From NCBI GenBank assembly GCA_965214845.1, contig CBDCCO010000007.1, positions 1,137,030 through 1,201,029 on the forward strand: a DNA stretch of 64,000 nucleotides, in the 5' to 3' direction. Numbering within the stretch: position 1 is the first letter of the stretch; every line of letters begins with the position of its first letter. Under the pieces are notes generated by a model. That model was not told where the DNA came from. It worked only from the letters and a program-made list of their open reading frames with translations, and ran no database searches. The stretch comes from Vicinamibacterales bacterium (lineage in GTDB: Bacteria > Acidobacteriota > Vicinamibacteria > Vicinamibacterales > UBA8438). Both the position numbers and the translations under genes were made by a program. Positions 4,800-58,196 of the stretch are shown here, in pieces.

Positions 4800-6178
4800 T
4801 GCGTTCTCCTTCGGCCGCCCTCTCGCCCCTGCTCCTGGCCGCGGTGCTGTTCGCCGAGGGCTACTCGTCGCTCTCGATCGAGATCCTGGCCCTGCGCCGG
4901 ATGGTCCCGTGGGTCGGCTCGGCGGTGCCGGTCACCTCGCTTCTGCTCAGCGTGTACCTGGCCGCGCTGGCCGCGGGCTACCAGACCGGCGGGCGCCTGG
5001 CCGCCGCGGGCGGCGACCTGCGCGGCGCCCTCGGCCGGCGCCTGGTTCTGGCCGCCGCGCTCGCGGCCTTCTGGCTCTCGGACCTGGGCGTCACGCTGGT
5101 CTTCTCGCTGCCGCTGCCGCCGGTCGCGGCGATAGCGCTCTACTCGGTCGCCGGGATTGCGCCGCCGGGGTACCTGCTGGCGCAGTGCATCCTGCTGGCC
5201 CACGCGTGCGCGCGGCCGGCGGATCCGTCCGTGCGCGCCGGGCGCGTCTTCGCGGTCTCGACCGCGGGCAACGTCGCCGGCTCGCTCCTGACGGCCTTCG
5301 TGGTGCTCTCGCACCTGGGCACGGCGGCCGCCGCGCTGCTCATCGTCGCGGCGCTGGTCGCCGCCGCGCTGGCCGTCAGCCCGCGCTCGTTCGGCCCGGT
5401 CGCGATCGCGCTGTGCCTGATCGGTCCGGGCTTCAGCCTCTGGTACGAGGCGACGCGGCTGGTCGCCAGCACGGCGTACGCCGACTACAGCGTGCTGCCG
5501 ATAGACGCCGAGCCGGCGGGCAGGCTGCTCTTGCTCAACCGGAGCCCGGCGTCCCGGGACGACCCGGACGGCACGGGCTGGGAGTACCTCGAGTGGATCG
5601 AGGACCAGCTGTGCGCGGAGCGGCCCGGGCGGGTGCTCGTCCTCGGCGCCGCCGGGCGCACGCTCGGCCGCGGGCGCGACTGCTTTCCGCCGCCGGTCTT
5701 CGTCGACATCGACCCGGCCGTGGGTCGTGTCGCCGGGGAGCTGCTCTTCGGTCCCGCCCCCGGCCCGCTCGTCGTGGCCGACGCGCGCGCGTTCCTGCGC
5801 CGCGGCGACCCGGCCTGGGACGTTGTCGTGGTCGATGCCTACTCGCACGAGCTCACGTTCCCGTCGCACCTGGGGACGGCGGAGTTCTTCTCGGCGGTCC
5901 GCGGCAGCCTGGCGGTAGGCGGCATCGCGTACCTCAACGTGCTGACGCCGCCGGACTCGGCCCGTTTCCTCTCGCGCCTTGACCGGACGGTCCGCAGCGT
6001 CTTCGCCGAGTGCCGCACCTGGTCGGTGCTCGCGCACGGCCGGCGCGAGCCCCTTGTCCGGGCGGTCGGCCGGCCGGACAACCTCGTCTACCGCTGCCTG
6101 CGTTCGCCGCACGACGGCGACGCGGCGGTGTACTCCGACGCGCTGCCGCGCATCGACCTCGATCGCGGCCTGCGCTGA
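4778..6178 (+). CDS. membrane-anchored spermidine synthase-like (class I SAM-fold) protein
   Basis: 466 aa. The N-terminal ~230 aa form multiple hydrophobic helices. The C-terminus reads VLVLGAAGRTLGRG...FVDIDPAV...VVVVDAYSHELTFPSHLGTAEFF...GGIAYLNV, which resembles an aminopropyltransferase fold. Confidence 0.6.
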   Translation: MSGEVSSLRSPSAALSPLLLAAVLFAEGYSSLSIEILALRRMVPWVGSAVPVTSLLLSVYLAALAAGYQTGGRLAAAGGDLRGALGRRLVLAAALAAFWLSDLGVTLVFSLPLPPVAAIALYSVAGIAPPGYLLAQCILLAHACARPADPSVRAGRVFAVSTAGNVAGSLLTAFVVLSHLGTAAAALLIVAALVAAALAVSPRSFGPVAIALCLIGPGFSLWYEATRLVASTAYADYSVLPIDAEPAGRLLLLNRSPASRDDPDGTGWEYLEWIEDQLCAERPGRVLVLGAAGRTLGRGRDCFPPPVFVDIDPAVGRVAGELLFGPAPGPLVVADARAFLRRGDPAWDVVVVDAYSHELTFPSHLGTAEFFSAVRGSLAVGGIAYLNVLTPPDSARFLSRLDRTVRSVFAECRTWSVLAHGRREPLVRAVGRPDNLVYRCLRSPHDGDAAVYSDALPRIDLDRGLR

Positions 6179-8517: not shown

Positions 8518-8881
8518 GGGATCGGTTGCCGGCCGCCTGGATGGATCCGGGCCGGCAGGGGGCCTCAGAGGGGGCCCACTCTGGGGGCCCACCTCGATTG
8601 TTCAGTCGGCTTCTGAATAGAGCGGTTTTCTGCTTGCCGGGCCCGGCAAGCAGAATTGGACGGCTTTTTGGCCCTCAGGGGCGAAAGTCGTTTTTCTGTC
8701 CGCAATTTGTTGCTGAAGAACGAGTTCTGCTGATTCCCATCGGCTTGCAGGCGAAAAGGGTAACCCCAAATTTTTGGGGTAACCACTTTCATACTTATGC
8801 AGTCTGAAAATAATTATGCAGTCCGGGACCCGTCGTGTCCCGGGCGCGCGGATGGGAGCGATTTCGGGCCGGGCGCGCCCT
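8518..8881. repeat. left copy of a ~370-bp inverted repeat with an AT-rich core (core 8614-8841)
   Basis: It is the reverse complement of 48481-48856. The 228-bp core differs at 1 position by my alignment, and the flanks are ~85% identical with indels. The core contains the hairpins GCTTGCCGGGCCCGGCAAGC, CCCCAAATTTTTGGGG and CCGGGACCCGTCGTGTCCCGG, plus the direct repeat TTATGCAGTC-N10-TTATGCAGTC. Confidence 0.9.
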
Positions 8882-8939
8882 CTCGGAGGCGGTCAGCTGT
8901 GGCGGCCTGCCGCCCGTTCTGCCCGGGTGGGGCGGCGGG

Positions 8940-11900
8940 TCACAGCCGTGCGTGCGCCGCGCTCTCGTGCCCCCTTGCGGCGGCTCTCTCGGCAGTGTCC
9001 GCCGCGGCCGGGGCGTCGTGCGGCCCGTGGCGCCCGGCCGTCTCCAGGTCGCCGCCGCCGCCGATCTCGCGAATCGGGTCGTACGTCTCGAGCTGTTCGC
9101 CCCTGTCGCCCTCGACCGCGCCGCGGTCGTCCCCGGTGCGGCGGCCGATCGCCCCCAGGTCGGTCAGCTGCGCGTCGCTGGTGCGGGTGACGCCGTGCTC
9201 GTCGACCGTCTCGACGGGCACTTCCGCCTCGCCCGCGTGCATGATCAGGTGCTCGCACAGCGGCGTGTCCTCGTCGCGCGGGAACGCGACCAGGACGTGG
9301 GCGCCGGCCTCGGCGACCATGCGCTCGTTGCGCCGGTAGCCGGCGCCGCGGCCCTCCTCGTCCCAGGCCGCCTCGTACACGTCGCAGGGCACCCCGGCGT
9401 CCTCGCACCAGCGCAGCGCCTCGCGGTCGGCGCCCCGCGAGTCCCCCACGACGACCCGCATCGGCGCCCCGCCGATCCGCTGGCCGACCTCGTCGAGCTT
9501 CGCCCGCAGCAGGTTGGTCTCGGTCAGCGAGCGCGAGCCGCAGACCATCACGCGGACCTCGCGCGTGCCCTCGGCGGGCGCCGGGCGGGCCGCCGGCGGG
9601 CTCAGTGATTCGGGCGCCGGCGCGCGGGCCGGGCGGGGGCGCCGCGTCAGCCGGCCGTCGCGCTCGAGCTCGCGCTCGATCTCGCGGCCGACCTCCAGCG
9701 GGCCGCCGGGCGCGCCGAGCGCCTCGACCAGGTGCTCGAGGTCCGGCGCCGCAGGCCGCTCGCCCGCGCCGGCCAGCCGCGCCCGGACGTCCTCGTCGAT
9801 CCTGGCCTCGAGGTTCGCGGCCGCCTGGCGCATGCGCTCGAGCTGGGCCTCGCTCGCCCCGCCCTCGCGCATGCGCTCGACGTGAGCCTCGGCCGCGGCG
9901 ACGCGCGCGGCGTCGGGGTGCCCGGCGCGCAGCGCGTCGAGCCGGTCGTCGGGCGGCGCGTCGAGCAGGCGGCTCTCGAGCTCGTAGACGGCATCGTCGT
10001 AGCGCTTGAGCTGCTCGCCCGAGGCGCCGTGGCGCTCGAGCACGTCCCGCCGCCGGTTGATGGCATCGACGCTGCTCTTGCCCGGCTCGCAGGCGTGGGC
10101 GGCCACCGCGGCCTCCGGCTCGAGGTCGGCGCCGTCGTCCCAGGCCGGGATGTCGTCGACGTCGACCTCGACGGTTCCGAGCGCCTCGTCGAGCCGGCCG
10201 TCGCGTTGCGGCGCCCGCGGCTTCTGCGCGGCCTCGCGCTCCCGCTCGATCCCGGCCGCCCAGGCTGCGGCCTGGCTCAGCGGGCCGCCGTGGCAGGGCT
10301 CGGGCGCGCAGTGGCACGCCAGCGGCCGGCCGTCGAGCGCGGCGAGCTCCGCCAGGTCGACCTGGCCGCTGTCGATGCGCGCGGCGAGCACCTCGCGGTA
10401 CTGCTCGACAACCTCGCGGCGCTCGTCGGCGCCGGCTCCGCGGGCGAGCGGGAACGGGTTGCCCCACTTCGTGTTGCGGTCGATCCGCACGGCCGCGCCG
10501 GTGCGCACCTTCTCGAACGCCCCGGCCTCGCGCAGGTTGAGCAGCTCGGCGTCTCCCGCCGGCGCGCCGGGCTGCGCCCAGGGGGCGTCGGCGGCCCGCT
10601 CGCCCAGCCGGCGGGCCACACTCCGGGCGCTGCGGCCCGGGACGGGCTTGACGACGCCGTCCGCCGGGTCGGCCCGCCCGCGCGAGCGCGCCTCCTCGGT
10701 CCCGAGCTCGGCGGGCCCGGTCCCGCTGACCCGCGTCCATCCGTTCGTGGTGACCGTCTCGATCGGCACGCCGGCCCTCTCGGCCGCGTCCGCCCAGGCG
10801 CGCGGCATCGCGCGCCCCCCCAGCAGCAGGTGCGGGTCCTGCTCGTCGAGGATGCGCCGCGCCAGCCCGGCGCTCGTGTCCCCGGCCTCGGCCCGCAGGT
10901 ACATGTCGCAGCGGACGCCGCTCGTGCGGGCCCACTCGTGCGCGACGGCCGCCGCGCTGCTGGTCGCCACGGTCTCCTCGAAGGCGAGGCGCAGCGCCGC
11001 CGGGGCGCTCCGCTCCCGGACGGCGTCGAGCTTGGCCCGCAGCGCGGCCCGGTTCTCGCCGCTTGGCCCCGGGGCGACGGCGATGCGGATCTCGCCGTCG
11101 ATGGCCGGGTCGCCGTTGGCGAGCCGCGCCGCCGCCAGCTCGCCCGGGCCCTCGACGGGCGCGTGGAGCCTGGTGCGGCCCAACGCGTTGCCCATCGCCG
11201 CCAGGTCGGCCAGCTTGCCGTCCGCCGTGTGCGTCCAGGCCTCGCCGCCCTCCACCACGACCTGCTCGACCTCGAGCCGGCGCTCGCGCGCCTCGTGGAG
11301 CAGGTGCCGCGGGCGCTTGCCGTCGTAGTCGGGAAAGCCCACCACGACGTGCGGGTCGCCGCTGGCCAGCAGCGCCTCGTTGGCGCGGTAGCCGGCCGCC
11401 TTCGGGTGCGCGTCCCAGTCGGCCGGGTACGCCGCCGCCGGCGTGCCGGTCTCCCGGGCCCACGCCTCCACGGCCGCGTCGAGCTCGCCGGCGCCGCCGT
11501 GGAGCAGGCGCAGCGGGTGCGGCGAGGCCCGCTCGGCCAGCTCGTCGAGCTTGCGCCGGACCACCTCCGCGTCCCCGAAGCGGGGGCTGCCGGTCACGGC
11601 GACGCGGATCTCCGAGCGGCGGCTCTCGTCGGTCGGCCCGGCGGCGAAGCCCTGGTCCATCAGCTCGGAGAAGGCCATCGGGTCGTCGAGCCGGTCGAGC
11701 ACCCTGGCCCGGGCCATGCCCTGCAGCATCGCCATGCTGCGGGCCTGGCAGGCCAGGGCGTGGCCGCGGCGGTGGAACCTGTCGGTGAACGCGTCGTAGT
11801 CGACGGCGCCGACGCCGGCGGCCCGGGCCGAGCGGATCCAGAGCCGGTCGTAGAACTGCGTGCCGGTCTCGGCCGGCCAGAACAGGCGGCCGTCGTCGAA

Positions 11901-12206
11901 GCCGCGCAGCCGCCCGGCGCGGCAGCGGGTCCGGTCGAGCTGCTTGGCGTCGAAGCCGTTGGCGAGCACCCGCCCGGCGGGGCCGCCCTCGGGCCCGTAG
12001 CACTTGGCGGCCTGGTAGACCGCCTCGACGGGCTTGCCCGACGCCGGGTCCTCGAGGAACATCGCCGAGAGCTGGCGGCCGAGCGGCTGCGGGCTGCGGC
12101 TGCTGATCTCGAGCACCCGCAGGCTGTCGGGGGGGCCGTCCGGCCCGTGGTGCTCCCGTGCGAACGGCGGCCGGGCGAGCGGCGTGAACCAGGTCGTCGG
12201 CTTCAT
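8940..12206 (-). CDS. polyvalent protein: unknown N-terminal domain + DUF2493(SLOG) x3 (middle copy degenerate) + DUF4326
   Basis: 1088 aa. DUF2493-like units: IRVAVTGSPRF...LLHGGAGELDAAVEAWARETG...ADWDAHPKAAGYRANEALL...VVGFP and VRVMVCGSRSL...VVVGDSRGADREALRWCEDAG...AAWDEEGRGAGYRRNERMV...LVAFP. DUF4326-like unit: VRIDRNTKWGNPFPL...YREVL...LDGRPLACHCAPEPCHG. Confidence 0.8.
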   Translation of the reverse strand: MKPTTWFTPLARPPFAREHHGPDGPPDSLRVLEISSRSPQPLGRQLSAMFLEDPASGKPVEAVYQAAKCYGPEGGPAGRVLANGFDAKQLDRTRCRAGRLRGFDDGRLFWPAETGTQFYDRLWIRSARAAGVGAVDYDAFTDRFHRRGHALACQARSMAMLQGMARARVLDRLDDPMAFSELMDQGFAAGPTDESRRSEIRVAVTGSPRFGDAEVVRRKLDELAERASPHPLRLLHGGAGELDAAVEAWARETGTPAAAYPADWDAHPKAAGYRANEALLASGDPHVVVGFPDYDGKRPRHLLHEARERRLEVEQVVVEGGEAWTHTADGKLADLAAMGNALGRTRLHAPVEGPGELAAARLANGDPAIDGEIRIAVAPGPSGENRAALRAKLDAVRERSAPAALRLAFEETVATSSAAAVAHEWARTSGVRCDMYLRAEAGDTSAGLARRILDEQDPHLLLGGRAMPRAWADAAERAGVPIETVTTNGWTRVSGTGPAELGTEEARSRGRADPADGVVKPVPGRSARSVARRLGERAADAPWAQPGAPAGDAELLNLREAGAFEKVRTGAAVRIDRNTKWGNPFPLARGAGADERREVVEQYREVLAARIDSGQVDLAELAALDGRPLACHCAPEPCHGGPLSQAAAWAAGIEREREAAQKPRAPQRDGRLDEALGTVEVDVDDIPAWDDGADLEPEAAVAAHACEPGKSSVDAINRRRDVLERHGASGEQLKRYDDAVYELESRLLDAPPDDRLDALRAGHPDAARVAAAEAHVERMREGGASEAQLERMRQAAANLEARIDEDVRARLAGAGERPAAPDLEHLVEALGAPGGPLEVGREIERELERDGRLTRRPRPARAPAPESLSPPAARPAPAEGTREVRVMVCGSRSLTETNLLRAKLDEVGQRIGGAPMRVVVGDSRGADREALRWCEDAGVPCDVYEAAWDEEGRGAGYRRNERMVAEAGAHVLVAFPRDEDTPLCEHLIMHAGEAEVPVETVDEHGVTRTSDAQLTDLGAIGRRTGDDRGAVEGDRGEQLETYDPIREIGGGGDLETAGRHGPHDAPAAADTAERAAARGHESAAHARL

Positions 12207-12218
12207 CTTGCAGTCCTC

Positions 12219-12250
12219 GTTTCAATCCTCGCCACGCGAGCGTACCGCGC
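12219..12250 (-). CRISPR. solitary type I-C-like CRISPR repeat unit (partial) in the 5' UTR of the polyvalent gene
   Basis: On the minus strand: GCGCGGTACGCTCGCGTGGCGAGGATTGAAAC, then GAGGACTGCAAG, then the ATG at 12206. The last 14 nt, GCGAGGATTGAAAC, are shared with R2 at 55087-55118. It has a short CTCGC/GCGAG hairpin. The IS1634 end lies 33 nt upstream. Confidence 0.45.
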
Positions 12251-12282
12251 GCCGGGGACCGTCGTCCGGAGGCCGCGGCCCG

Positions 12283-14255
12283 CTAGCCGGAAGTTTCAGC
12301 GTTGATCGCGCGTAAGTCACTAGAATTGTGTGATTTATCGATTTCGCAGGTGTTGGCTACTGGCTACATTCGCGGGGTCACTCCCAGCAGCTCGAAGCAG
12401 CGCTGCTGTACCGGCGTGGGCTCGGTGAGCAGCGCGAAGGTGGCGTCGCTGTCGGCCACGCGCATGGTGTTGGCGGTCAGCGTGCCGAGGTCGGAGAGCA
12501 GCGTCCGGAAGCTGTGCACGGGGAGGTCCTCGGCGGTGCGCTTGCGGGCGGCCTTGGCGCGTGCCGCGGGCGAGCGCTTGGCCTTGCGGACCACGGATGA
12601 GCGCTGCCGTTCGGCGGCGGCCGGGTCGTGGTCATCGAAGAGCAGCGGGGCCAGGGCCTGGCGCATGTGCCACTCGACGTAGTAGGCGAGCATGCACAGC
12701 AGGACGTGCGCCCGCACCCGGTCGGCCCGCCGGTGGTAGATCGGCCGCACCTTCAGGTCCACCGACTTGAGGGACCGAAACGCGCGCTCGACCTTCGCCA
12801 GGTCCTTGTAGGCGCGGACGGTCTGCGCGGCATCGAACTGTTCCGGCTCGACGTTGGAACGGACGATGTAGATCCCGTCGAGTTGCTGTTCGTCTGCGAT
12901 CCCGGCCTCGTCGCGATGGAACGCGAACGACTCGTCGGTGATGGTGGTGACGAAGTGCTTGGCGACCTTGTAGCGGTTGACGACCTTGCCGACGCGCACG
13001 CCGATGTCTGCCGCGCCCCGTAGCGGGTCGTTCGGGCGCCGGGTCGCCGCCACAATCGGTTCGAGCTCCTTCTCGGTGGCGGCGAGCAGCTCGTTGCGCT
13101 TGCGGTGCCGCTCGGCGGCGAGCAGCGGATTGCGGCAGACGATGAGCCGTTCGCCGGGGAACTCGTTGCTGGTCACCTCGGCGAGGTCGCGCTCGTCGAA
13201 CAGCGACGGGGTGACGGTGCCGGCGGCCACCAGCTTGCGGATCGTCGGCGCGCGCAGCGTGGTGATCCAGCGCAGCCCGTCGACGCTGGCGAGGTCCTCG
13301 CGGATGCGCGCCGCGGTCAGCATGCCGCGGTCGCCGACGAGCACGACCCGCTGGAGGCCGAAGCGGGAGCGGAGCTTGTCGACCTGACGGGCCACGGTCA
13401 GCGGGTCGCTGGTCGAGCCTTCGAAGACCTCGACGGCGACCGGACACCCCTTGGCCGTGCACAACAAGCCGAAGACGATCTGCAGCGTGCCTTTCTTGCG
13501 GTCGCGGCTGTGTCCGCGTCGGGCGAGCTCGCAGTGCGTTCCCTCCACGTAGCTGGAGGTCAGGTCGTAGAGCACGAGGGTGTGCTCCTGCAGATGGCGC
13601 TTGGCCAGGCGCTGTTCGATGGCCGCCTGCCGCTCGACGAGCCAGTCCATGGCGGCGTACAGCTCGAGCGGGTCGACCTCGCCGAGATTCAACAGGTCCC
13701 CCAGCGTGGAGACGGCGCTCTCGGGGGTCAGGGCGCGGGCGGTGGCCAGCTTCGACTGCGCGTCGATGACGCGCGCGACGATGAGGGCGACGACGAGGTC
13801 ACGGACCCGGCTGGTGCCGCGGGCGAGGAGGGTAGGCAGTCCGAGGCGTTTGAGGGTGCCGAGCACGGCGGCAACGTGCCCGTGGGGGCGGCTGCGGACG
13901 CAGGTGAAGGCGTCGTCGGGATGGACGAGCCGCTCGCCGCGGAGGATGCGGCGCAGGGCCTCGATGGCGGTGGTGGGCAGCTTCGAGAGATTGGCGAGCG
14001 TACGCTTCTTGACACGGCCGCCGTCGCGGTAGGACTCGCGGAGGAGGACGGCGGGCGGCGAGGAGCGGTTGGGGACGCTCTCGATATACATGGTTACACA
14101 TTATAGCACAAACACCACTAATATTATGGACCAACACGCCAACATGACAACCACAATACATGGCTACATTTCGCCACATACAGCACGCCAAAACCCCCGC
14201 AACGCCTTTAGAATCTATGGGTTCCGAAAAACAGGCCTCTGAAACTTCCGGCTAG
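12283..14255 (-). mobile_element. IS1634-family insertion sequence
   Basis: 17-bp terminal inverted repeats: CTAGCCGGAAGTTTCAG at 12283-12299 and its reverse complement at 14239-14255. The non-coding ends are low in GC and there is a single DDE transposase ORF. I saw no clear target duplication. Confidence 0.8.
12364..14091 (-). CDS. IS1634-family (IS4-like DDE) transposase
   Basis: 575 aa: MYIESVPNRSSPPAVLLRESYRDGGRVKKRTLANLSKLP...VVLVGDRGM...YIVRSN...YKDLAKVERAFRSLKS. This is the typical IS1634 N-terminus and YREK-type C-terminus. Confidence 0.85.
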   Translation of the reverse strand: MYIESVPNRSSPPAVLLRESYRDGGRVKKRTLANLSKLPTTAIEALRRILRGERLVHPDDAFTCVRSRPHGHVAAVLGTLKRLGLPTLLARGTSRVRDLVVALIVARVIDAQSKLATARALTPESAVSTLGDLLNLGEVDPLELYAAMDWLVERQAAIEQRLAKRHLQEHTLVLYDLTSSYVEGTHCELARRGHSRDRKKGTLQIVFGLLCTAKGCPVAVEVFEGSTSDPLTVARQVDKLRSRFGLQRVVLVGDRGMLTAARIREDLASVDGLRWITTLRAPTIRKLVAAGTVTPSLFDERDLAEVTSNEFPGERLIVCRNPLLAAERHRKRNELLAATEKELEPIVAATRRPNDPLRGAADIGVRVGKVVNRYKVAKHFVTTITDESFAFHRDEAGIADEQQLDGIYIVRSNVEPEQFDAAQTVRAYKDLAKVERAFRSLKSVDLKVRPIYHRRADRVRAHVLLCMLAYYVEWHMRQALAPLLFDDHDPAAAERQRSSVVRKAKRSPAARAKAARKRTAEDLPVHSFRTLLSDLGTLTANTMRVADSDATFALLTEPTPVQQRCFELLGVTPRM

Positions 14256-14266
14256 GCTTCGCCTCC

Positions 14267-14725
14267 GTGCGCTTCGCTGTCGCTGCGGTTGTGCTCGTGC
14301 TCGCGGCGCCCGGCCCCGTCCGGGCCGGCGAGCTCCCGTTCGGCGGCGCCGTTGAGGCCGCGGCCGCGCGGCACGGCGTCGACCCGGCGCTGCTGCACGC
14401 CGTGATCGCCGTCGAGTCGGCGCACCGGCCGGCGGCGGTTTCCCCGGCGGGCGCCGAGGGCCTGATGCAGCTGATGCCTGCCACGCAGCGCGACCTGGGG
14501 GTCTCGGACCCGTTCGACCCGCGCGCCAACGTCGACGCGGGCGCCGCCTACCTGCGGCTGCTGGCCGACGAGTTCGGGACGGTGCTCGCGCTGGCCGCCT
14601 ACAACGCCGGCCCGGGGGCCGTCCGCCGCCACGGCGGCGTTCCGCCCTTCCCCGAGACCCGGCACTACGTGCGCCTCGTCCTCCGGGCGCTCTTCCGCCT
14701 GCGGGCGGGCCTGCCGCCCCGCTGA
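14267..14725 (+). CDS. lytic transglycosylase (SLT domain, VirB1-like), secreted
   Basis: Signal peptide MRFAVAAVVLVLAAPGPVRA. SLT motifs: AVIAVESAHRPAAVSPAGAEGLMQLMP and LAAYNAGPGAV. The GTG start lies only 12 nt from the IS1634 end. Confidence 0.85.
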   Translation: MRFAVAAVVLVLAAPGPVRAGELPFGGAVEAAAARHGVDPALLHAVIAVESAHRPAAVSPAGAEGLMQLMPATQRDLGVSDPFDPRANVDAGAAYLRLLADEFGTVLALAAYNAGPGAVRRHGGVPPFPETRHYVRLVLRALFRLRAGLPPR

Positions 14726-39661: not shown

Positions 39662-39811
39662 TGGTGCAGGATAGTCCTTTCTCGCGGGCCGTGTCTTCAC
39701 GGGCGTCCGCGTCCTTTTGTCGTGTCTCATCCGGCCGCGGTTCCCTACGCTTGCGCCGGCCAGCGGTGGTCGCGGGCGTCGGGGTCGGCGTGAGCGGAAC
39801 GGGGTCTGGGC

Positions 39812-42800
39812 GTGGAACTTCTGCTGCAGGCGGTGCGGGGATCCTTCCTTCGAGTGCGCGTGGCGTCCGGCGCCGGCGCCCCGGTCCGGCTCCGGCTGCG
39901 CCGGCCGGTCCCGGGCGCTCTCGTCTGCGCCTGTGCGTTCGCCATCCTGCTGCCTGCGCCCGTCCGGGCGCAGGGCGAGTCGCCGTCGTTCACCTACGTC
40001 CTCGCGCCGCTGGCGGCGGCCGAGCCCGAGCACCCGGCGGACGGCAGCCGTGCCCGCCGGGACGTTCGCTTCGCGTTGACCCGGGTTCTGCAGGGCGGCG
40101 GCCGGCAGGGAGACACGGAGGGTCCCTGGGAGCCTCTGCAGGCGCAGTGGATCCACTGGTGGGTCGAGGCCGAGACCGCGGACAAGGGGCCGCCCGGCCG
40201 CGATGGCTCCGACTTCGACGGCCCGGACCGGCCGGCGGGCCGGCTGTCCGCCGCCAGCCTTGGCATGCGCGGGACGGCTTGCTTCGAGCCCCGCAACCCG
40301 ACCGTCGTCCTCGAGGGCGTCGAGGTGTTCTCCGACGATCTCGCCGAGGCGCGGGAGACCTTCGTCCTCTCGTTCTCGTACGCGACGGACCCGCTCGCCC
40401 CGACCGACCCTCCGGTGGGTTGCGTGGAGCTCCGGCGCGACGTAGCCCGGGTGCGCTCGGCCCTGGCCCAGCCGAAGAGCTTCTTCACCGTCGGCATCAC
40501 CGACCACCGGACCGAGCAGGCCCCCGAGCTGACGTCGCAGGCCGGGCCGCTCGAGCTCGAGGTGGCCGAGACCGACCGGGACTTCCGGGCCGCGCTCGTC
40601 ATCGAGACCGACCGCGTGAGTCCCGCCACCTACTGCTATCCGTTCCGGCTGGTGGTGGGCCGGGGCACCGCGTCGGACGCCGACGTGTGGACCGCGGGCG
40701 GCGGTCCGGGCGGGTACTTTGCCCTGCCCGTCGGCTCGAGTCTCGCGCGCTCGGACCACCTCGTGGTCGTCGGCGACACCGTCTCCGAGGCGGACGAGAC
40801 GTTCCATCTCGACTTTTACGACCCGGTCGTGGGCGATTCGTGCTCGCCGCCTTTCGGGGCGGGCGGCCCGCCGCGCTGGGAGGCGGTGGTCGTCATCGTC
40901 GACGACGATGAGCCGGACGGCGGCGGCCTGCCCTGGTTCGGCCTTGACCCGGCGCGCTGCCCGGACGCGCCGTCCGTCCTGGCCGTCACCGAGCCGCCGG
41001 CGGCGGACGGGCTGGTCGCCGTGAGTTTCGAGCTCGTCCACCGCGTGGTCACCCGGGGCCCGGGCCCGGGGCCGGAGAACCCGGACGGCGCCGGCGGGGC
41101 CGCGGTCTGTCAGGAGCCCGTTTCGGACGTCGTGGAGGTGACTGCGGTGCTGGCGCGCGCCGGCGGGGGCGGCGCGGAGCCGGGCGTTGATATCGTGCTG
41201 CCGCCGCACTCGCGCCTTCTGCGGTTCTACCGCGACCAGCCGGTGGCCGTCGAGCTGCTGGTCAGGGGCGATGGGCTGGCGGAGGGCGCCGAGCGGATCG
41301 ACCTCCTGCTCGGCACGGGCCGCGGCGGCAACGTGCGGCTGAGCGTGGTCATCGAGGACCACGAGCTCCGGGTGGAGGTGGCCGCGGGCCGGGCGGCGTC
41401 GCTCACGCGCAGCGGCCGGCTCCTGGGCTCGGCCGTGACCGGTGCGCTCGCTGCGCGCTTCTCGTGCGCCGGCTCGGCCGCCTGCGACCCGTTCGAGGAC
41501 GAGTCGGAGACGCTCTTCCCCGGCGGCGGCCGGGTGCCCGCCGGACGGCGCGGCGCGGCCGCCGCACGGCGCCTCGGGCAGGCGGCGCGGGTGTTGCTCC
41601 CTGCCGGCGCGCCCGCGGCGGGTCCCGCCGGCCTCGGCCGAGTCGGCCGTGGCTTCCGCCACCGGGCGGCGGCGGTGATGGGGCCGGCCGCGGCCGGCGA
41701 CCCGCTCCGGCGCGTCGGGCGGCTGGTCGAGGCGCTCTCCTCGCAGGGAGACCTGCTCGGCTGGCTCGACCCGTCCGCGCGCCGCCCGCGGTCGCCGTGG
41801 TCGGTCTGGTTCCGCGGCTCGTCGCAGATGGACCGTGACGCCGCCGGCGCCGGGCGGTCCGTGGAGACGGGGCTGGTGACCGCGGTCGCGGGCGTCGACC
41901 GCCGGGTGGGCCGGGTCCGCATCGGCGGGCTCTACGGCTGGTCGTTCGGGGCCTACAGCCGCCGGCACGGCGCCGGGTCGCACGCGACGGACGTGGCCGA
42001 CGTGCCTGTGAGCTGGCAGTTCGCGGCGCCGTACGTCGGCGTCGCGCCGCACCCGAGGGTGCGGCTGTGGACCTCGGTCGGCGCCGCCTGGGGCGGCCCG
42101 GCCAGCGGCGGGCCCGGCGCCGAGGCGTCGACCGGCGCCGCTCCCGGCGGCGCCGAGGCCCGCGTCGGCCTCTGGCTGTACTCCGGCGGCGGCTCGCTGT
42201 CGCTGGCCCGGGCCGGCGTTGTCGAGCTCGAGCTCGAGGGCGACGTCTTCCGGGTGCGCGTCGAGCACGGCGGCGGCGGCGTGATCGGCGACGCGTCGTC
42301 GGCCCTGCGCGGACGCGCGGGCGTCCGGGCCGGGATGCGGGTCGGCGGCCCCCGCGCCCCGTCGCACCTGTCGCTGGCGGTCTGGCAGCGGTGGGACGCC
42401 GGCCGCGACCTCGAATGGGTGCGCCGCCTCGGGCCGCGCGCCGTGGCGATGGCCACCGATCTGGGCGTCGACTACCGCTGGCAGCGTCCCGGCTCGCGCC
42501 TGGCGTGGACGGCCGCGGCCGAGGTCGAGGTCGTTGGTGGCGGCGGCGGCGCCCACCGCTCGAAGCGGGTGTCAGCGGGCGGCGGCCTGCGCTGGGGAGC
42601 GTCGGAGACCGGCGAGGGCTGGTCGCTGGCGGTGCGGCCGGGCTACGGCCCGGCGGCGGGGCTCGGGCCCTCGGCGTGGTGGGATGCCGCGGCGCCGGGC
42701 GCCGCGTCCCTGTTCGGGCCGGCGCGGCCGCGCGTGGACACGGACGTCGGCTACGTCTTCGCCGGCGGGGCCGCGGCCGTCGTCACGGCTTCGTCGCCCC

Positions 42801-42877
42801 TGGCGGGCGGCGGGCCGGACGGCCTCGGGCTCGAGCGCGGGGCGTCGGTGGCCCTGCGCTTCGACCGCGGGTGGTGA
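39812..42877 (+). CDS. autotransporter-like outer-membrane protein with Calx-beta-like passenger modules
   Basis: Signal-like ...ALVCACAFAILLPAPVRAQG. It has repeated modules that end in ..DDLAEARETFVLSFS and ..VSEADETFHLDF..VVVIVDDDE. The C-terminal ~300 aa show alternating beta-barrel patterning and end in ..VALRFDRGW. Confidence 0.65.
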   Translation: MELLLQAVRGSFLRVRVASGAGAPVRLRLRRPVPGALVCACAFAILLPAPVRAQGESPSFTYVLAPLAAAEPEHPADGSRARRDVRFALTRVLQGGGRQGDTEGPWEPLQAQWIHWWVEAETADKGPPGRDGSDFDGPDRPAGRLSAASLGMRGTACFEPRNPTVVLEGVEVFSDDLAEARETFVLSFSYATDPLAPTDPPVGCVELRRDVARVRSALAQPKSFFTVGITDHRTEQAPELTSQAGPLELEVAETDRDFRAALVIETDRVSPATYCYPFRLVVGRGTASDADVWTAGGGPGGYFALPVGSSLARSDHLVVVGDTVSEADETFHLDFYDPVVGDSCSPPFGAGGPPRWEAVVVIVDDDEPDGGGLPWFGLDPARCPDAPSVLAVTEPPAADGLVAVSFELVHRVVTRGPGPGPENPDGAGGAAVCQEPVSDVVEVTAVLARAGGGGAEPGVDIVLPPHSRLLRFYRDQPVAVELLVRGDGLAEGAERIDLLLGTGRGGNVRLSVVIEDHELRVEVAAGRAASLTRSGRLLGSAVTGALAARFSCAGSAACDPFEDESETLFPGGGRVPAGRRGAAAARRLGQAARVLLPAGAPAAGPAGLGRVGRGFRHRAAAVMGPAAAGDPLRRVGRLVEALSSQGDLLGWLDPSARRPRSPWSVWFRGSSQMDRDAAGAGRSVETGLVTAVAGVDRRVGRVRIGGLYGWSFGAYSRRHGAGSHATDVADVPVSWQFAAPYVGVAPHPRVRLWTSVGAAWGGPASGGPGAEASTGAAPGGAEARVGLWLYSGGGSLSLARAGVVELELEGDVFRVRVEHGGGGVIGDASSALRGRAGVRAGMRVGGPRAPSHLSLAVWQRWDAGRDLEWVRRLGPRAVAMATDLGVDYRWQRPGSRLAWTAAAEVEVVGGGGGAHRSKRVSAGGGLRWGASETGEGWSLAVRPGYGPAAGLGPSAWWDAAAPGAASLFGPARPRVDTDVGYVFAGGAAAVVTASSPLAGGGPDGLGLERGASVALRFDRGW

Positions 42878-48167: not shown

Positions 48168-48480
48168 GGCGATGGTCGCCTCGACCAGCTCGGGCGGCGA
48201 GGGATCGCGCCGGCGGCTGGTCGGCGCCAGCAGCACCCAGCCATCGGCCCGGCGCCAGAGGGCGGCCGTTCCCTCGCCGAGCTCCTCCGAGCGCAGCATC
48301 GTCCGGCGTCCGGCAGGCCGGCACGATCGCCGGCCAGCGGCGGGCGGCTTCGAGAGGGGAAGAGCCCCGGCGCGCGGGTCTCCGGGACGATGCGGCCCGA
48401 CGGCCTGCTGCCCGCCCGGATGGCTGGGCCGCAGACCCCTGCAACCTGCCGCCGGACGGATCGGCCAATCCACCTGCAAC

Positions 48481-48856
48481 AGGGCGCGCCCGGCCCGAGA
48501 TCGCTCCCATCCATGCACCTGGGACACGACGGGTCCCGGACTGCATAATTATTTTCAGACTGCATAAGCATGAAAGTGGTTACCCCAAAAATTTGGGGTT
48601 ACCCTTTTCGCCTGCAAGCCGATGGGAATCAGCAGAACTCGTTCTTCAGCAACAAATTGCGGACAGAAAAACGACTTTCGCCCCTGAGGGCCAAAAAGCC
48701 GTCCAATTCTGCTTGCCGGGCCCGGCAAGCAGAAAACCGCTCTATTCACTAACCGGCTGAACGACCGAGGCGGGCCCCCAGGGTGGGCCCCCTCCGAGGG
48801 CCCCCGGCCGGCCGGGATCCGGCCAAGACTCCGCCAGACGGCCGGCGGCCGATCCC
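48481..48856. repeat. right copy of the ~370-bp inverted repeat (AT-rich core 48521-48748)
   Basis: Reverse complement of 8518-8881. It lies between macrodomain gene B (reading leftward) and macrodomain fragment C (reading rightward). Confidence 0.9.
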
Positions 48857-49052: not shown

Positions 49053-51159
49053 CTAGCGCGCGGCGGCGGCGTAGCCCGGCTCGGTCCGCCCCGCGCCGTG
49101 GGGCCCCAGTGGCCGCTCCCGCGCCGTGGCCCCGGCCGGCGCCGGTGCGGCGTGCGGCTCTGGCGGCTCGGTGCGCTCGATCAGCCGGTCGGGAATGGAC
49201 TCGATGAAGGGCGAGCGCTCCACGCGCTTGAGCCTGGCGCCGTGGGCGATCCGCAAGGGCGCCGTCAGGTGCAGCTCCCTGCGCGCCCGGGTCATGCCGA
49301 CGTAGGCTAGGCGGCGCTCCTCCTCGATGGCCGCCGCCGGGGTCGCCGGCCTCCGACACCGTGCGGTGGTGCGGCAGCCGCTCGGCGTCGAAGCCGGCGA
49401 GGATCACCGTGTCGAACTCGAGCCCCTTGGCCGCGTGTAGTGTGGACAGGGTGACCGGCTCGCGGCCCGCGCCGGCCTCGCGCGCGCCGTGCGCGGCCTC
49501 GCGGAGCTGCCTGCAGCGTTCGACGAACCCGGCGCTCACCTGGCGCGGGTCCTCGCGCCCGGCGCCGGCCGCCCCGCGCCCCTCGCGCGCGAACTCGCGC
49601 GCGTCGCGCACCAGCTCGTCGATGTTCTCGATCCGCTCGATCTGGCGCTTGTCGTCGCCCTTGCGCAGCGCGTCGCGGTAGCCGGTCAGCCTCTGCGCCC
49701 GGACGATGACGTCGGCCGGACCCAGGCCCTGCCAGCCCTCCAGCGTCCGGATTTTCTCGAGCCGGCGGGCCGCCGCCGCCGCGTCCCTCGGGCTCAGCGA
49801 GCCGTCGCCGAGGGCCGCCGCGACCCGCTCGCGGCAGGGCGCCGAGGATGGACCGGCACGGTCAATGCGGTCGAGCCCGGCTGCGCTGACCCGCTCGCCG
49901 GGCGGCATCGCCAGGAAGCGCCGCGCAGCGGCGCCGGCCCCGCCGCCCCCGGCCGCGATCTCGACGCAGGCCAGCATGTCCCGGATCTCCGGCCGCTCGT
50001 AGAACGATTCGCCGCCGGCGATCCGGTACGGGACCGACGCGTTCCTGAACGCCGACTCCATCGCGCACGCCTGCGCGTTCGTCCGGTAGAGCACCGCGAC
50101 CGGCCCGCCGCCGGCCGTCTGCCGCCGGCGGGCGGCCTCGGCGGCGTAGTGGGCCTCGCCGGCCGGGTCCGCCGCCAGGTGCAGGCGCACTGGGCCGCCG
50201 GCGTCGCGGGTCGTCTCGATGGCGCGGTCGATGCGCGCCGTGTTCGGCTCGATGACCGCCCGGGCCGCCTCGAGGATGTTCCCCGTCGAGCGGTACGTCA
50301 GGTTCAGGTCGATGCGCCGCGCGCCCTCGAAGTCGTCCTCGAAGCGCATGATGTTCTCGATGCTCGCCCCGCGCCACTCGTAGATCGCCTGGTCGGGGTC
50401 GCCGACCGCGAACACGTTGCCGCGCTCGGCGGTCAGCTGCCGGATGAGCACGTACTGCGGCAGGTTCGTGTCCTGGTACTCGTCGACCAGCAGGTGCGGG
50501 TGCTCCCGCTCGCCGGCCGCGGCCACGTCCCTGTGCTCGTGCAGCAGCCGGATGGTCCAGAGCATCATGTCGTCGAAGTCGAGCGTGTTGCGCTCGGCGA
50601 GCTTGTCCTGGTACCGTCCGGCTATCGCCGCCGTCTCGGCGGCCTGCCCGCCCGCCCCCCACTGTTTCGGGTCGTCGGGGCTCTCGAGCCTGTTCTTGAT
50701 CCCGCTGATGCGGTGCAGCACGGCGTTCGCGCCGAGCGGCCCGCCGCGGCCGCGGACCTCGCGCGCGGCCTCGCGCAGCAGCGCCTGCCGCTCGCCCGCC
50801 TGCGCCACGGCGAAGTCCGGCGGGATGCCGACGCGCGCGCCGTCCCGGCGCAGGATGCGGCCGCACAGGCGGTGGAAGGTCGAGACCCAGACGCCGTTGC
50901 CGTGGAGCGGCCCGAGCATCTCGCGCACGCGCCCGGCCATCTCGCCGGCTGCCTTGCGCGTGAAGGTGATGGCCGCGATGCGGGCGGGGTCGATGCCGCG
51001 GCTGCGCACCAGGTGGGCGATCCGCGCACAGATCACCCGGGTCTTGCCCGAGCCGGGCCCGGCCAGCACCAGGGTCGGCCCGTCGGGGGCCGAGGCGGCC
51101 TCGCGCTGGCGGTCGTTGAGCCCCTCGAGAGGCGGCCTTTCCCAGGCGCAGCCGTCCAT
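49053..51159 (-). pseudogene. UvrD/Rep/PcrA-family helicase with an apparent 1-nt frameshift near 49,325-49,345
   Basis: LNDRQREAASAPDGPTLVLAGPGSGKTRV (Walker A), LLVDEYQDTN, VGDPDQAIYEWRGA, TLHAAKGLEFD. The C-terminal motif, (A)AAIEEERRLAYVGMTRARRELHLT...SPFI, is in another frame (ORF 49053..49295). The total length of 2107 nt is not a multiple of 3. This could also be a sequencing error. Confidence 0.7.
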
Positions 51160-51275
51160 TGCCTGCGGTGCGGGCTAGCGCTCGCGGCCACGGTCGCGGT
51201 TGCGCGAGTCGCGAGGCTGCTGCCTGCCGGCCGGGTCCGGCCCCGGATTCGGCTCCGGTGCGTCGGGCGGGCTGC
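51115..51275. repeat. ~160-bp direct repeat, copy 1 (helicase start plus upstream gene tail)
   Basis: GTTGAGCCCCTCGAG.GGCGGCC..TCCCAGGCG..GCCGTCCAT.GCCTGCGGTGCGGGCTAGCG... aligns with 53265-53420 at roughly 80% identity with one 12-nt indel. Confidence 0.8.
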
Positions 51276-52287
51276 CGGGCCGGAGCGAGATGGCGTCGGG
51301 CGCTCTGGCGGGCTCCTCTGCCTGGTCGCCGATCTCGACCATCTTGCCGAGCCCGGCGCTGCTGCGCGCCTCGTTCAGGCGTCGCTCCGGCGTCCCGTCG
51401 TCGCTGTCGAACGCCACGCCGGTCCACCTCTTCTTGCTGAGTGCGTCGAGGCTTGCTTCCAGTCCTCGCCGACGCAGCGTGCTGTTCGCGGCGATGTAGG
51501 CGCCGATACCGGATTGAGTCAGTGCGGCGTGTGCCTGTTCCCGCTGGTAGGTCTCGGTCCGCGTTCCGCCCGCGGGGCTCGTCGTCTCGATCGCGATGCC
51601 GATGTCGGTCGTCCGGATTCGCACGTGCCTGTAGCGGTGGTTCCACGCAGCGTCGGCTGCCGCGTCTCCCATGCCGTCCAGGTATTTCTCGTAATGTGGC
51701 GGCACCCCTCGCAGCGTTGTCTTCGCGTCCTCGACCATTTCGTCGTTCATGGTCAAGAGGTTGTGACAGATGGTTCGTCTCTTGGCCTCGTCGAGGCTGT
51801 TGACTGCGATCTCGAGCGCACGGGGGTCTTCTTCGGCGGCCACTGCCATGTCGAAGGCGTCGCGTGTCACGCCGCGGTCGGTACGGTAGAACTTTCCCCG
51901 CAGGATCTGCGCGTTGTCGAGGACCACCTCGGAACGTCCTTCGACGTCGGTTCGGCTTTCGAGCCCTGGCAGCTGTGGCGGGATTGCCGCAACGTCGAGC
52001 TTGCCGTTCTTGAGTACGACGATCAGCCGCTCGCGGGTGCTGCCCTCATGTTTTCCCCCCGTGGCTGCTGCCAGGTCCAGTGGTCCGCCCTTGCCAGCGT
52101 CGGCGACGTTGTCGCGGTCCGGCAGAAGGATGTCGATATCGGTGCTTTCGCGGTGGTGCCACCGTGAAGCGAGCACGGATCCGCCGCCCAGCATCGTGCG
52201 GCTCTCGCCGCCTGACGCCGTGGCGATTCGGTCGATGGCCTTGCGGTGCTGCTTCCACAGCGTGCGCGCTGGTTCCGGCAGGGTCAT
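51175..52287 (-). CDS. AbiEii/DUF1814-like nucleotidyltransferase (putative toxin), copy 2
   Basis: The ATG at 52287 overlaps the upstream stop (ATGA). MTLPEPARTLWKQHRKAIDRIATASGGESRTMLGGGSVLASRWHHRESTDIDILLP...NAQILRGKFYRTDRGVTRDAFDMAVAAEEDP... The C-terminal ~25 aa (PEPNPGPDPAGRQQPRDSRNRDRGRER) are homologous to the tail of 53325..53756. Confidence 0.65.
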   Translation of the reverse strand: MTLPEPARTLWKQHRKAIDRIATASGGESRTMLGGGSVLASRWHHRESTDIDILLPDRDNVADAGKGGPLDLAAATGGKHEGSTRERLIVVLKNGKLDVAAIPPQLPGLESRTDVEGRSEVVLDNAQILRGKFYRTDRGVTRDAFDMAVAAEEDPRALEIAVNSLDEAKRRTICHNLLTMNDEMVEDAKTTLRGVPPHYEKYLDGMGDAAADAAWNHRYRHVRIRTTDIGIAIETTSPAGGTRTETYQREQAHAALTQSGIGAYIAANSTLRRRGLEASLDALSKKRWTGVAFDSDDGTPERRLNEARSSAGLGKMVEIGDQAEEPARAPDAISLRPGSPPDAPEPNPGPDPAGRQQPRDSRNRDRGRER

Positions 52288-52990: not shown

Positions 52991-53264
52991 CGATCCGGTG
53001 CCGTCCGTGCCGCGGGTGATGAACTTGGCGTGCACCCGGCCGCTCCTCTCCGAAGCGGAACAGTCGCGCGATTGCCCGCTCAATGGCGACTCAGTGGGCG
53101 AGACCTTGCGCTTCGGCCGTCTCGGTGTGCGTGTTCGCCTACCGCGCGATCTGGTTCAGTTTATTGCCGATGCGGGCGACCTGCCGGCTGCCGGGTGCAC
53201 TCGCGCTCGGTGCCGACCGCCTGCGCGGCACCGGCCCACTGCGTGGTTCGCTTGATGGGCGGTA

Positions 53265-53420
53265 GTTGAGCCCCTCGAGCGGCGGCCGCTCCCAGGCGTG
53301 GCCGTCCATCGCCTGCGGTGCGGGCTAGCGCCCGTGGCCGTGGTCATGGCCCCGGTCGCGGTTGCGCGGGTCGGGAGGGAGTTGCCTGCCGGCCCAATCC
53401 GGGCCGTTGTTCGGCTTTGG
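53265..53420. repeat. ~160-bp direct repeat, copy 2 (contains a 15-codon remnant of the helicase start at 53265-53309, minus strand)
   Basis: The remnant MDGHAWERPPLEGLN compares with the intact helicase N-terminus MDGCAWERPPLEGLN at 51159. The repeat also covers the 3' tail of 53325..53756. Confidence 0.8.
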
Positions 53421-53756
53421 ATCATCAGGCTGGCCGCCCTGCCGGAGGGGGACCTCGCGCGCGTTCCGCAGGGTCTCGGACGTCCCGGCCGCCGCCCGGG
53501 CCGCGCCCGAGCCGGCGGGTTCGCCGGGTCCGCCCGGCGCGTCCTGGCCGCCGCGGCCGAGTCGCCGGCCCAATGCGCCGAGGCCGGCGCCGATGGCGTC
53601 GTTGAGCGGGTTGCGGGCCTGGGCGGCGTTGCCCGTCATGATCCCGGTCGTCACCTGGGACTGCGTGTCCTCGATGGCGCTGGCCGTGCGCGACACCGCC
53701 GGGGCGGCCTTCGAGATCGCGCTGCCCGCTGCCGCGCGCAGCTCCTTGTTCGCCAT
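53325..53756 (-). CDS. hypothetical protein
   Basis: 143 aa: MANKELRAAAGSAISKAAPAVSRTASAIEDTQSQVTTGIMTGNAAQARNPLNDAIGAGLGALGRRLG.., with the tail ..PKPNNGPDWAGRQLPPDPRNRDRGHDHGHGR. Confidence 0.45.
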   Translation of the reverse strand: MANKELRAAAGSAISKAAPAVSRTASAIEDTQSQVTTGIMTGNAAQARNPLNDAIGAGLGALGRRLGRGGQDAPGGPGEPAGSGAARAAAGTSETLRNAREVPLRQGGQPDDPKPNNGPDWAGRQLPPDPRNRDRGHDHGHGR

Positions 53757-55032: not shown

Positions 55033-55042
55033 CGTGCGGCGG

Positions 55043-55118
55043 ACCGCTCCCGGCACGGGAGCAGGGATTGAAACTGAAACGTAGAGGCTGCTCCCCAGGT
55101 GGGAGCGAGGATTGAAAC
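55043..55118 (+). CRISPR. tandem pair of type I-C-like CRISPR repeats with a 12-nt pseudo-spacer (solitary-repeat / mini-array-like)
   Basis: R1 55043-55074 ACCGCTCCCGGCACGGGAGCAGGGATTGAAAC; gap TGAAACGTAGAG; R2 55087-55118 GCTGCTCCCCAGGTGGGAGCGAGGATTGAAAC; the ATG follows at 55119. Against the I-C repeat as I recall it (GTCGCGCCCCGCACGGGCGCGTGGATTGAAAC), R1 matches 25/32 and R2 23/32, with a compensatory G-C to T-A change in the stem. Confidence 0.7.
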
Positions 55119-58121: not shown

Positions 58122-58196
58122 CGCGCGCCCGGGCGGCGGACTGGCGCCGCGCCGGGCGGGGCACGCGCCGGCTGCCGGCCGAAGGCGGCGCCGCGG

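Follow-up and report, generated by a model that had tools for sequence, protein, structure and literature searches.

A diverged, solitary type I-C-like repeat unit before the start codon of an anti-defence-type gene on an acidobacterial mobile island

Why should the 3' end of a CRISPR repeat stand, letter for letter, just before the start codons of two genes that lie about 43 kb apart on one mobile island? The DNA in question is a 64,000-nt stretch of contig CBDCCO010000007.1 from a Vicinamibacterales bacterium (hereafter the window), which resembles an island of the conjugative-element type. It carries two neighbouring type I-C repeat mimics, R1 and R2, ahead of a gene for a 558-aa protein, and a third repeat-like unit, R3, ahead of a gene for a 1088-aa polyvalent protein. 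We consider it very likely that R3, the subject of this analysis, derives from a type I-C repeat. That it still acts upon Cas proteins as an RNA decoy is a more tentative proposal, which we place somewhat short of probable and which draws on analogy with described RNA anti-CRISPRs (Racr).

A repeat unit of type I-C form

Read on the minus strand, positions 12250 to 12219 give GCGCGGTACGCTCGCGTGGCGAGGATTGAAAC, followed by GAGGACTGCAAG and by the ATG at 12206-12204 that opens the 1088-aa open reading frame (ORF; 8940-12206, minus strand), exactly as the original prediction described; the sole in-frame stop upstream of this ATG is the TGA within ATTGAAAC. R3 is a single unit in the intergenic region between the polyvalent gene and a divergent SLT lytic transglycosylase gene, and the prediction that it belongs, in sense orientation, to the leader of an anti-defence-type gene is borne out. 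The 5' boundary that had been drawn at 12250 is 4 nt short. The unit starts at about 12254/12253, and the shorter version cuts off the 5' arm of a hairpin.

The last 14 nt of R3, GCGAGGATTGAAAC, agree with the end of R2 (55105-55118) at all 14 positions, as had been claimed, whereas the tails of R1 and R2 differ from each other at 2 of 14. Within this 14-mer lies the 11-nt 5' handle of a CRISPR RNA (crRNA), AGGATTGAAAC, at 12229-12219, with handle length and cleavage site taken from PMC8524198. The 14-mer occurs exactly twice in the window, at 12219-12232 (minus strand) and 55105-55118 (plus strand), and was absent from all 100 dinucleotide shuffles; a composition-based estimate puts a chance match in 128 kb at ~6e-5. 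Allowing up to one mismatch, GGATTGAAAC has 4 matches in the window against 0.51 expected. The shorter box ATTGAAAC occurs three times in the 64 kb, every copy in R1, R2 or R3, and so is not a general ribosome-binding site (RBS) context in this window, which was the objection that the original prediction had raised against itself. Two further sites were set aside, one of GGATCGAAAC at 2144 since it lies inside a coding region, and one of TTGAAAC at 3553 that has no repeat features.

From 12254 to 12219, R3 is predicted to fold as ((.(((((((.....))))))).))..........., that is, a 9-bp stem with one G.G mismatch and two G.U pairs, a UACGC pentaloop, and an 11-nt tail, AGGAUUGAAAC (12229-12219), which is unpaired in the minimum free energy fold and follows directly after the stem. 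Its length of 35-36 nt compares with 32 or 37 nt in the I-C families described below. When random 22-nt pieces of the window were placed before the same 14-mer, only 38 of 5,000 (0.8%, p~0.008) left a free tail of 11 nt beside 9 or more pairs and a loop of 3-7 nt. We had also entertained the idea that R3 is a repeat tail and nothing else; the 32 nt originally delimited indeed fold no better than shuffles (z=+0.4), and it is the 4 additional nt on the 5' side that reveal the hairpin.

The original view that one and the same mimic recurs at two genes stands for the 14-mer common to R3 and R2. It does not stand for the remainder, where R3 is unlike R1 and R2 (4 of 18 positions alike, by eye) and where its 5' 18 nt, aligned to the 5' half of the repeats in the 32-nt I-C family, do no better than 43% of random pieces of local sequence. 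A scan of GTDB, one genome per species, with the pattern GCTCCC-N5-GGGAGC-NN-GGATTGAAAC (the form of R1 and R2) returned at least 118 loci, and nearly all of those listed are arrays that repeat every 65-67 nt and have GTCGCTCCCCnnGCGGGAGCGTGGATTGAAAC as their consensus. At one of them (L024, from a 75%-GC Vicinamibacteraceae metagenome-assembled genome, MAG) cas5d-cas8c(Csd1)-cas7 stand directly upstream of the array, and the array has units with the terminal sequences GGGAGCGAGGATTGAAAC and GGGAGCAGGGATTGAAAC, which equal the 3' half of R2 and that of R1; among the matches listed, these GA and AG variants were seen at this locus only. R1 and R2 are themselves diverged, R2 with ~26 of 32 positions matching the closest L024 unit.

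A second family emerged from JGI metagenomes scanned with the 19-mer of R3. Its repeats, GTAGCGCCCG...CGGGCGAGGATTGAAAC, are 37 nt long with a 71-72-nt period and correspond to Rfam CRISPR-DR9. A type I-G assignment of this 37-nt GTAGCGCCC...GCGAGGATTGAAAC family was considered and abandoned; the family is also type I-C, because one of its loci (L134) holds a complete I-C operon, cas3-cas5d-cas8c-cas7-cas4-cas1, adjoining the repeats. Both the 32-nt and the 37-nt families ending in GGATTGAAAC adjoin cas5d-cas8c-cas7, in agreement with the type I-C assignment made originally, and the R3 tail is present in real I-C arrays as well.

A covariance model (CM) built from 36 real repeats of the 32-nt family scored R1 at 41.9, R2 at 39.7 and R3 at 18.0 bits (E=0.019), with no other meaningful match in the window. 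With a CM of the 37-nt family, built from 13 repeats, R3 (12253-12219) came out at the top of the window with 24.4 bits (E~9e-5), ahead of R2 with 23.1 bits. The training arrays had been retrieved with R3's own 14-mer, which makes this score circular as far as the tail goes; the 5' match, the length and the placement of the hairpin make up its independent part. R3 matches all five invariant 5' positions of the 37-nt family (G1 and G4-C7) at a length of 35 versus 37 nt. The Rfam model CRISPR-DR9 gives R3 20.6 bits, under its gathering score of 45, and neither of our CMs found another repeat within 43 kb of R3. A hairpin at 49379-49404 (plus strand), followed by GCGAGGAT, reaches 17.4 bits with the 37-nt CM; it lies antisense in the uvrD coding region, is devoid of the TTGAAAC end, and is likely due to chance. 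The shuffles without the 14-mer, the CM scores and the hairpin geometry all point to derivation from a CRISPR repeat, as the original prediction had argued, and R3 is very probably a diverged, complete repeat unit whose form recalls the long-stem I-C subfamily more than it does R1 and R2.

No cas genes lie within the window. The genome that carries it appears to encode a type I-C Cas8c (P0043), which is 90% identical to the Cas8c of L024. The whole proxy contig on which the L024 array lies (L158) has the order UvrD ... ParB - 278-aa protein - cas5d - cas8c - cas7 - array, with a ParB 41% identical to that of the window, and none of cas3, cas1, cas2 and cas4 was found in its 13.8 readable kb. 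The locus looks like a Cas3-less regulatory or competition module on a mobile element and, to judge from this proxy, the I-C system cognate to R1-R3 may itself reside on a related element. Its array (L024 170-925, minus strand; L158 12921-13671, plus strand) comprises 11-12 units. Its repeats are highly variable, its spacers measure 25-42 nt, and three of the spacers begin with the same 8 nt, TACCGCGC. Searches for TTC+TACCGCGC targets of these spacers gave chance-level matches, and no target beside a TTC protospacer adjacent motif (PAM) was found; a BLAST comparison of the full set of L158 spacers with the window and related loci returned noise only; and a search with the 12-nt spacer between R1 and R2, TGAAACGTAGAG, found only the spacer itself.

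Other solitary or short I-C loci were met along the way. The MAG of L024 also holds a solitary I-C repeat, GTCGCTCCCGACGCGGGAGCAAGGATTGAAAC, just past a DNA methylase gene (L067, 1493-1524, plus strand) and followed after 10 nt by a GTG with which a ~95-aa ORF may start. A Chthoniobacteraceae one-spacer I-C mini-array (L009, minus strand, ~5420-5505) has a spacer that starts with ATCGAGGACTGCAA, 12 bases of which are identical to the sequence after the R3 tail (CGAGGACTGCAA), and at L109 AACGAGGACTG follows the last repeat. We considered and rejected a meaning for GAGGACTG right after the I-C tail at these two loci, where no PAM-flanked target or extended similarity was found and ~0.3 occurrences were expected against 2 seen; the likeness to the R3 leader is probably a coincidence, though an unexplained one.

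The leader, the insertion sequence and the island

The coordinates of R3 and of the features discussed here are collected in Table 1. The 12 nt that separate R3 from the ATG, GAGGACTGCAAG, had been taken for a second, diverged handle. At the equivalent place orthologous loci read CGAGGCAAAGA-ATG (L001) and AGGAACAAGAAAG-ATG (L126), so that the supposed handle is most simply the native leader of the gene; on this alignment a second handle is probably not present. The homologues of the polyvalent protein share 50-68% amino acid identity and the syntenic order hexapeptide-repeat protein - bPH - SLT - polyvalent. Their loci carry a TAGACT box, which in four of them stands 12-13 nt ahead of the ATG and in the fifth (L003) 22 nt ahead, and the same box also precedes other genes of these elements; in the window the distance from TACGCT to the ATG is 32 nt. 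Since the window leader contains ~20 nt that its orthologues do not, namely CGCGTG plus the 14-mer, between the -10 region and the native 12-nt leader, R3 is a lineage-specific gain. A plasmid database held no relatives of the R3 region, and matches there to the polyvalent protein were limited to its NADAR domain.

Table 1. Features in and around R3, in window coordinates
Feature	Position	Strand	Remarks
R3, solitary diverged type I-C-like repeat unit, 36 nt, CGGCGCGCGGTACGCTCGCGTGGCGAGGATTGAAAC	12219..12254	-	Fold, geometry control, CMs
14-mer GCGAGGATTGAAAC, same as the 3' end of R2	12219..12232	-	3 stem-foot bases plus 11-nt handle
TACGCT, candidate -10 box in R3 loop and 3' arm	12239..12244	-	Putative; transcription start ~12232, where the 14-mer begins
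TAGCGG, alternative -10-like box at the IS/target junction	12280..12285	-	Putative; whole R3 hairpin would be in the transcript
GAGGACTGCAAG, native leader	12207..12218	-	Shine-Dalgarno GAGGA 7 nt before ATG; orthologous leaders
1088-aa polyvalent protein gene (NADAR-DarT1, two YAcAr SLOG, DUF4326)	8940..12206	-	Pfam scan, homologues
IS1634-family insertion sequence (IS)	12283..14255	-	Perfect 17-nt terminal inverted repeats at 12283-12299 and 14239-14255; transposase gene 12364-14091 (-)
SLT lytic transglycosylase gene, divergent	14267..14725	+	-10-like TAGGCT at 14253-14258 overlaps the duplicated CTAG
R1, I-C repeat mimic	55043..55074	+	32-nt CM, E~1e-8; hairpin z=-3.5
R2, I-C repeat mimic	55087..55118	+	32-nt CM; tail abuts ATG 55119 of the 558-aa gene

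The transposase of the IS scores 325 bits against NCBIfam IS1634 (cutoff 100). As first reported, the IS end at 12283 is 33 nt from 12250. The element inserted at CTAG in a ~92-nt intergenic region between the divergent SLT and polyvalent genes, and its removal restores those ~92 nt versus 86 nt in L126, where the equivalent site reads CCTAC. The insertion cut off no further repeat, because IS and R3 are separated by 28 nt of native sequence that L126 has as well. The native promoter may, as originally suggested, have been displaced by the IS. Two candidate -10 boxes, TACGCT and TAGCGG, survive on the R3 side of the IS, and the latter resembles a TAGCGT 7 nt before R1 and a TAGCGG in L006, a close relative of the R1-R2 region. 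Inside the IS lies a promoter-like site, TTGTCA-16-CATAAT (14150-14123, minus strand), in the same orientation as the polyvalent gene, and no terminator is predicted before the IS end. The target CTAG (12283-12286 and 14252-14258) is common to two overlapping, divergent -10-like boxes, TAGGCT on the SLT side and TAGCGG on the polyvalent side; its duplication retained both boxes and parted each from its own upstream DNA.

Boxes of the form TA[CG]NCT stand 6-8 nt before the start codon at 23004, 15960, 37956 and 14253, that is, at the topoisomerase, hexapeptide-repeat, RDD-family and SLT genes, with TAGTCT-7-ATG (topoisomerase), TACACT-7-ATG (hexapeptide-repeat (Hexapep) protein) and TAGGCT-6-GTG (RDD-family protein) as examples. 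This spacing suggests that leaderless or short-leader mRNAs are widespread in the element.

Besides the polyvalent protein, this conjugative-element-like island encodes a ParB-domain protein, a type IA topoisomerase (Toprim/Topoisom_bac), a UvrD helicase and a Strawberry-notch-type helicase (Sno-type; Pfam AAA_34 and Helicase_C_4), and it carries several insertion sequences. The 558-aa protein that follows R2 (P0030; gene 55119-56795, plus strand) has no Pfam match. Its N-terminus is ParB-type-like, and residues 403-480 weakly match a phage N6-adenine methyltransferase (18.7 bits, far under the cutoff). The same 7.28-Mb contig encodes, at another place, an 81% identical paralogue (P0031), a sign that the genome may hold a second related element. 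The 346-nt arms of an inverted repeat (8547-8892 and 48470-48815, 93% complementary) flank 39.6 kb, one arm lying 48 nt past the polyvalent stop codon and the other overlapping the end of uvrD; the segment between them holds R3, and its inversion would align R3 in orientation with R1 and R2. A direct repeat of 75-88% identity (51108-51290 and 53258-53452) joins the start and upstream region of uvrD to a site 2.15 kb away, with a CTAGCGC/CTAGCCC box in both copies, and may be a duplicated promoter and N-terminal segment. Finally, ARAGORN calls a 91-nt tRNA-Arg(ACG) at 40645-40735 (plus strand) within an ORF (39794-42877) of high GC content at third codon positions; no Rfam tRNA reaches the gathering threshold there, and the call is probably a false positive.

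Function or decay

R3 is probably one of three repeat copies, R1 to R3, that imitate the CRISPR system of their own genome. In the functional account that we tentatively put forward, R3 would be transcribed within the mRNA leader of the polyvalent gene, and the I-C Cas5c, encoded at another place in this genome, would bind its RNA and perhaps cut it after G12230. R3 and R1-R2 together would mimic repeat RNA and, as a Racr-like decoy, occupy Cas5c, Cas7 and Cas8c; cleavage would leave an mRNA that starts with the handle and continues into its own Shine-Dalgarno site. Like R2, R3 has kept the stem foot GCG and the full 11-nt handle, and Cas5c is reported to read the cut site and the downstream handle and to tolerate changes in the loop and the 5' overhang (PMC8524198).

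A number of findings weigh against this account. In sequence the R3 stem is not related to GCTCCC/GGGAGC, which forms the stem in R1, in R2 and in the array of the proxy host, the hairpin energy is unremarkable (z=-1.1, with 28 of 200 shuffles folding as well), the 37-nt CM score is circular in its tail part, as described above, and R3 falls below the published criteria for solitary repeat units (SRUs), which require at least 90% identity and coverage. In JGI metagenomes and IMG/VR the R3 19-mer recovered real arrays and chance singletons from about a terabase searched, for example L130 and L153, where it spans a stop codon and an RBS, and no second copy or orthologue of R3. Were TACGCT the true -10 box, the R3 hairpin would lie outside the transcript. 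A Cas protein that occupies the leader would presumably keep the element's own polyvalent gene from being translated. The R1-R2 region, moreover, is rearranged in a close relative, as set out below. Lastly, the motif is absent from five out of five IS-free homologous loci, the very outcome by which, according to the original prediction, the proposal should fall. This absence marks R3 as a lineage-specific gain and not as a conserved regulatory element; mimicry is not thereby disproved.

Almost as likely as function, and still doubtful on its own account, is that R3 is a neutral relic, a decaying fragment of an I-C repeat that slippage, recombination or gene conversion brought into the leader from an array or from R2 and that now serves as mere untranslated spacer. 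The orthologues without R3, the lack of significant hairpin stability and the presence of the gene's own Shine-Dalgarno site downstream of R3 are all in keeping with such an origin, as are the tail duplications and internal deletions that are frequent in repeats of this family. The R1 tail carries an extra TGAAAC, and tails at L024 show duplications and deletions of the kind GGGTTGAAAC-TGGGTTGAAAC and GGATTGAAAC-GATTGAAAC. L006, which is 91% nucleotide-identical to window positions 54837-59306 over 4.5 kb, retains one intact hairpin, parted from its tail, and the tail has a 7-nt tandem duplication; the counterpart of R1-R2 (L006 205-271) reads hairpin GCTCCCGGTACGGGAGC, then GGGGAC-GGGAGC-TAAGGATC-AAGGATTGAAAC-AG-ATG. 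The rearrangement suggests fast turnover and not strong constraint. Units thus change fast by slippage and deletion, and decay accordingly keeps its weight as an explanation. What tells against it is that handle and stem foot agree 14/14 with R2, while the tails of R1 and R2 differ at 2/14 and the L006 tail differs again, and the hairpin stops exactly 11 nt before the repeat end (p~0.008). The unit also lies on the sense strand, right before an anti-defence gene, and matches the Cas type of the genome.

We think it unlikely that GCGAGGATTGAAAC is a Cas-independent cis-element, a leader, RBS or operator module of early genes that is read by ribosomes or by a regulator of the element. Both sites of the 14-mer precede start codons, the R2 tail supplies a GAGGA 7 nt before its ATG, and L006 keeps AAGGATTGAAAC 2 nt before the ATG despite its rearranged hairpins. 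The motif is present, however, at only two genes in 64 kb and is missing from related elements, and in R3 the 14-mer is too far from the ATG, with 12 nt and a second Shine-Dalgarno site between them, to serve as an RBS. R1 and R2, furthermore, are full I-C repeats (E~1e-8), and the origin of the motif is therefore CRISPR.

Improbable to much the same degree is a handle placed at the transcription start, with TACGCT (12244-12239) as the -10 box and a start near G12232, so that a hairpin-free mRNA would begin with GCG+AGGAUUGAAAC independently of any processing. The TA[CG]NCT boxes 6-8 nt before the start codons of other window genes and the TAGACT boxes 12-13 nt before the ATG in orthologues lend this some appeal, and the predicted start coincides with the 5' boundary of identity with R2. 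The box is nevertheless put forward from the consensus only, it is accompanied by no recognisable -35 element, a generic sigma-70 scan finds no promoter there, and the well-placed hairpin would have to be a coincidence (p~0.008).

A further reading, which we likewise rate as a long shot, is that R1-R3 constitute a Cas-coupled expression device, in which the I-C handle is built into the leaders of two anti-defence mRNAs and these abundant early transcripts either titrate Cas5c or Cascade, or have their leaders cut or occupied, so that translation would switch with the presence of Cas. The R2 handle would then double as a Shine-Dalgarno site, the R3 handle may form the 5' end of its transcript, and the Cas5c or Cascade may come from the Cas3-less I-C module on a sibling element. 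Chance resemblance can be dismissed as very improbable: GC-rich (CG)n sequence does form hairpins readily, and a search of about a terabase with the 19-mer did yield unrelated singletons, but the composition estimate of ~6e-5, the shuffles devoid of the 14-mer and the concurring independent CM scores speak against it.

Comparison with known repeat systems

SRUs (Faure et al. 2019, as cited in PMC10651486) that phages and plasmids carry bind Cas proteins and so work as RNA anti-CRISPRs; 83% match the subtype of their host, they cluster with anti-defence genes such as acr, and only 90 were found on plasmids (PMC10651486). Racr, including RacrIC candidates, were described by Camara-Wilpert et al. 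2023 (PMC10651486). R3 resembles them in being a single, intergenic repeat-like unit on a mobile element, away from cas genes, of a subtype that matches the Cas system of the host genome, and in adjoining anti-defence-type genes. It differs in the extent of its similarity, since R3 is ~45-70% repeat-like, with 14 contiguous identical bases and 5 scattered 5' positions, and would escape SRUFinder, which requires both identity to a known repeat and coverage to reach 90% (PMC10651486). Unlike a free small RNA, R3 is joined to an mRNA leader, with 12 nt between it and the start codon, while the R2 handle abuts its ATG. Its carrier is an integrated conjugative element of a probable Vicinamibacteraceae-like acidobacterium.

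Cracr mini-arrays with short spacers (median 19 nt for I-F) redirect Cas complexes (bioRxiv 10.1101/2024.10.29.618823). An RNA of the Cracr or CreR type combines a repeat, a short spacer and a second repeat or a terminator, the spacer seed matching a cas or toxin promoter beside a PAM. The Cracr of viruses and plasmids and the CreR/CreA mini-arrays of hosts share with the present units the degenerate and sometimes stacked repeats on mobile elements that load Cas proteins, and R1-12 nt-R2 has the two-repeat layout of a mini-array; the proxy array, with its very variable repeats and the seed TACCGCGC common to three spacers, is likewise reminiscent of Cracr. R3, on the other hand, has no downstream partner repeat, and the leader of its own gene follows the handle, while the 12-nt R1-R2 spacer is shorter than published Cracr spacers and has no target that we could find.

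Substrates of Cas5c consist of a stem, a 4-5-nt loop and an 11-nt overhang, and are cleaved at the 3' foot of the stem (PMC8524198). R3 resembles this canonical I-C plan in having a stem-loop, a conserved stem foot GCG and, right after the stem, an 11-nt 3' overhang ending in AUUGAAAC, which includes the expected GGAUUGAAAC end. Set against a stem of 7-9 bp, a 4-5-nt loop and 32-37 nt overall in such repeats, R3 has 9 bp, 5 nt and 36 nt, at a folding energy no better than that of shuffles. It departs from the plan in being solitary, with no spacers and no adjacent cas genes, and in the window it is not part of an array with ~33-36-nt spacers beside cas5c-cas8c-cas7. Its stem is unrelated to that of either family and has one mismatch and two wobbles, and position 22 is A where U is usual.

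R1-R2 fit among the known solitary repeats and mini-arrays, and R3 fits there as a diverged solitary unit that falls below the published sequence thresholds and is unusual in its fusion to an mRNA leader. Most known repeat mimics are free small RNAs of phages. Here they are found on a conjugative element of a poorly studied soil phylum, with the crRNA handle forming part of the 5' leader of anti-defence mRNAs, and they match an unusual I-C module of the same lineage that, like this element, has ParB and UvrD genes alongside. If R3 is non-functional, it records how fragments of CRISPR repeats scatter and decay in the regulatory regions of mobile elements. If it is functional, repeat mimicry would extend to conflicts between conjugative elements, and processing by a Cas nuclease would be linked directly to mRNA leaders.

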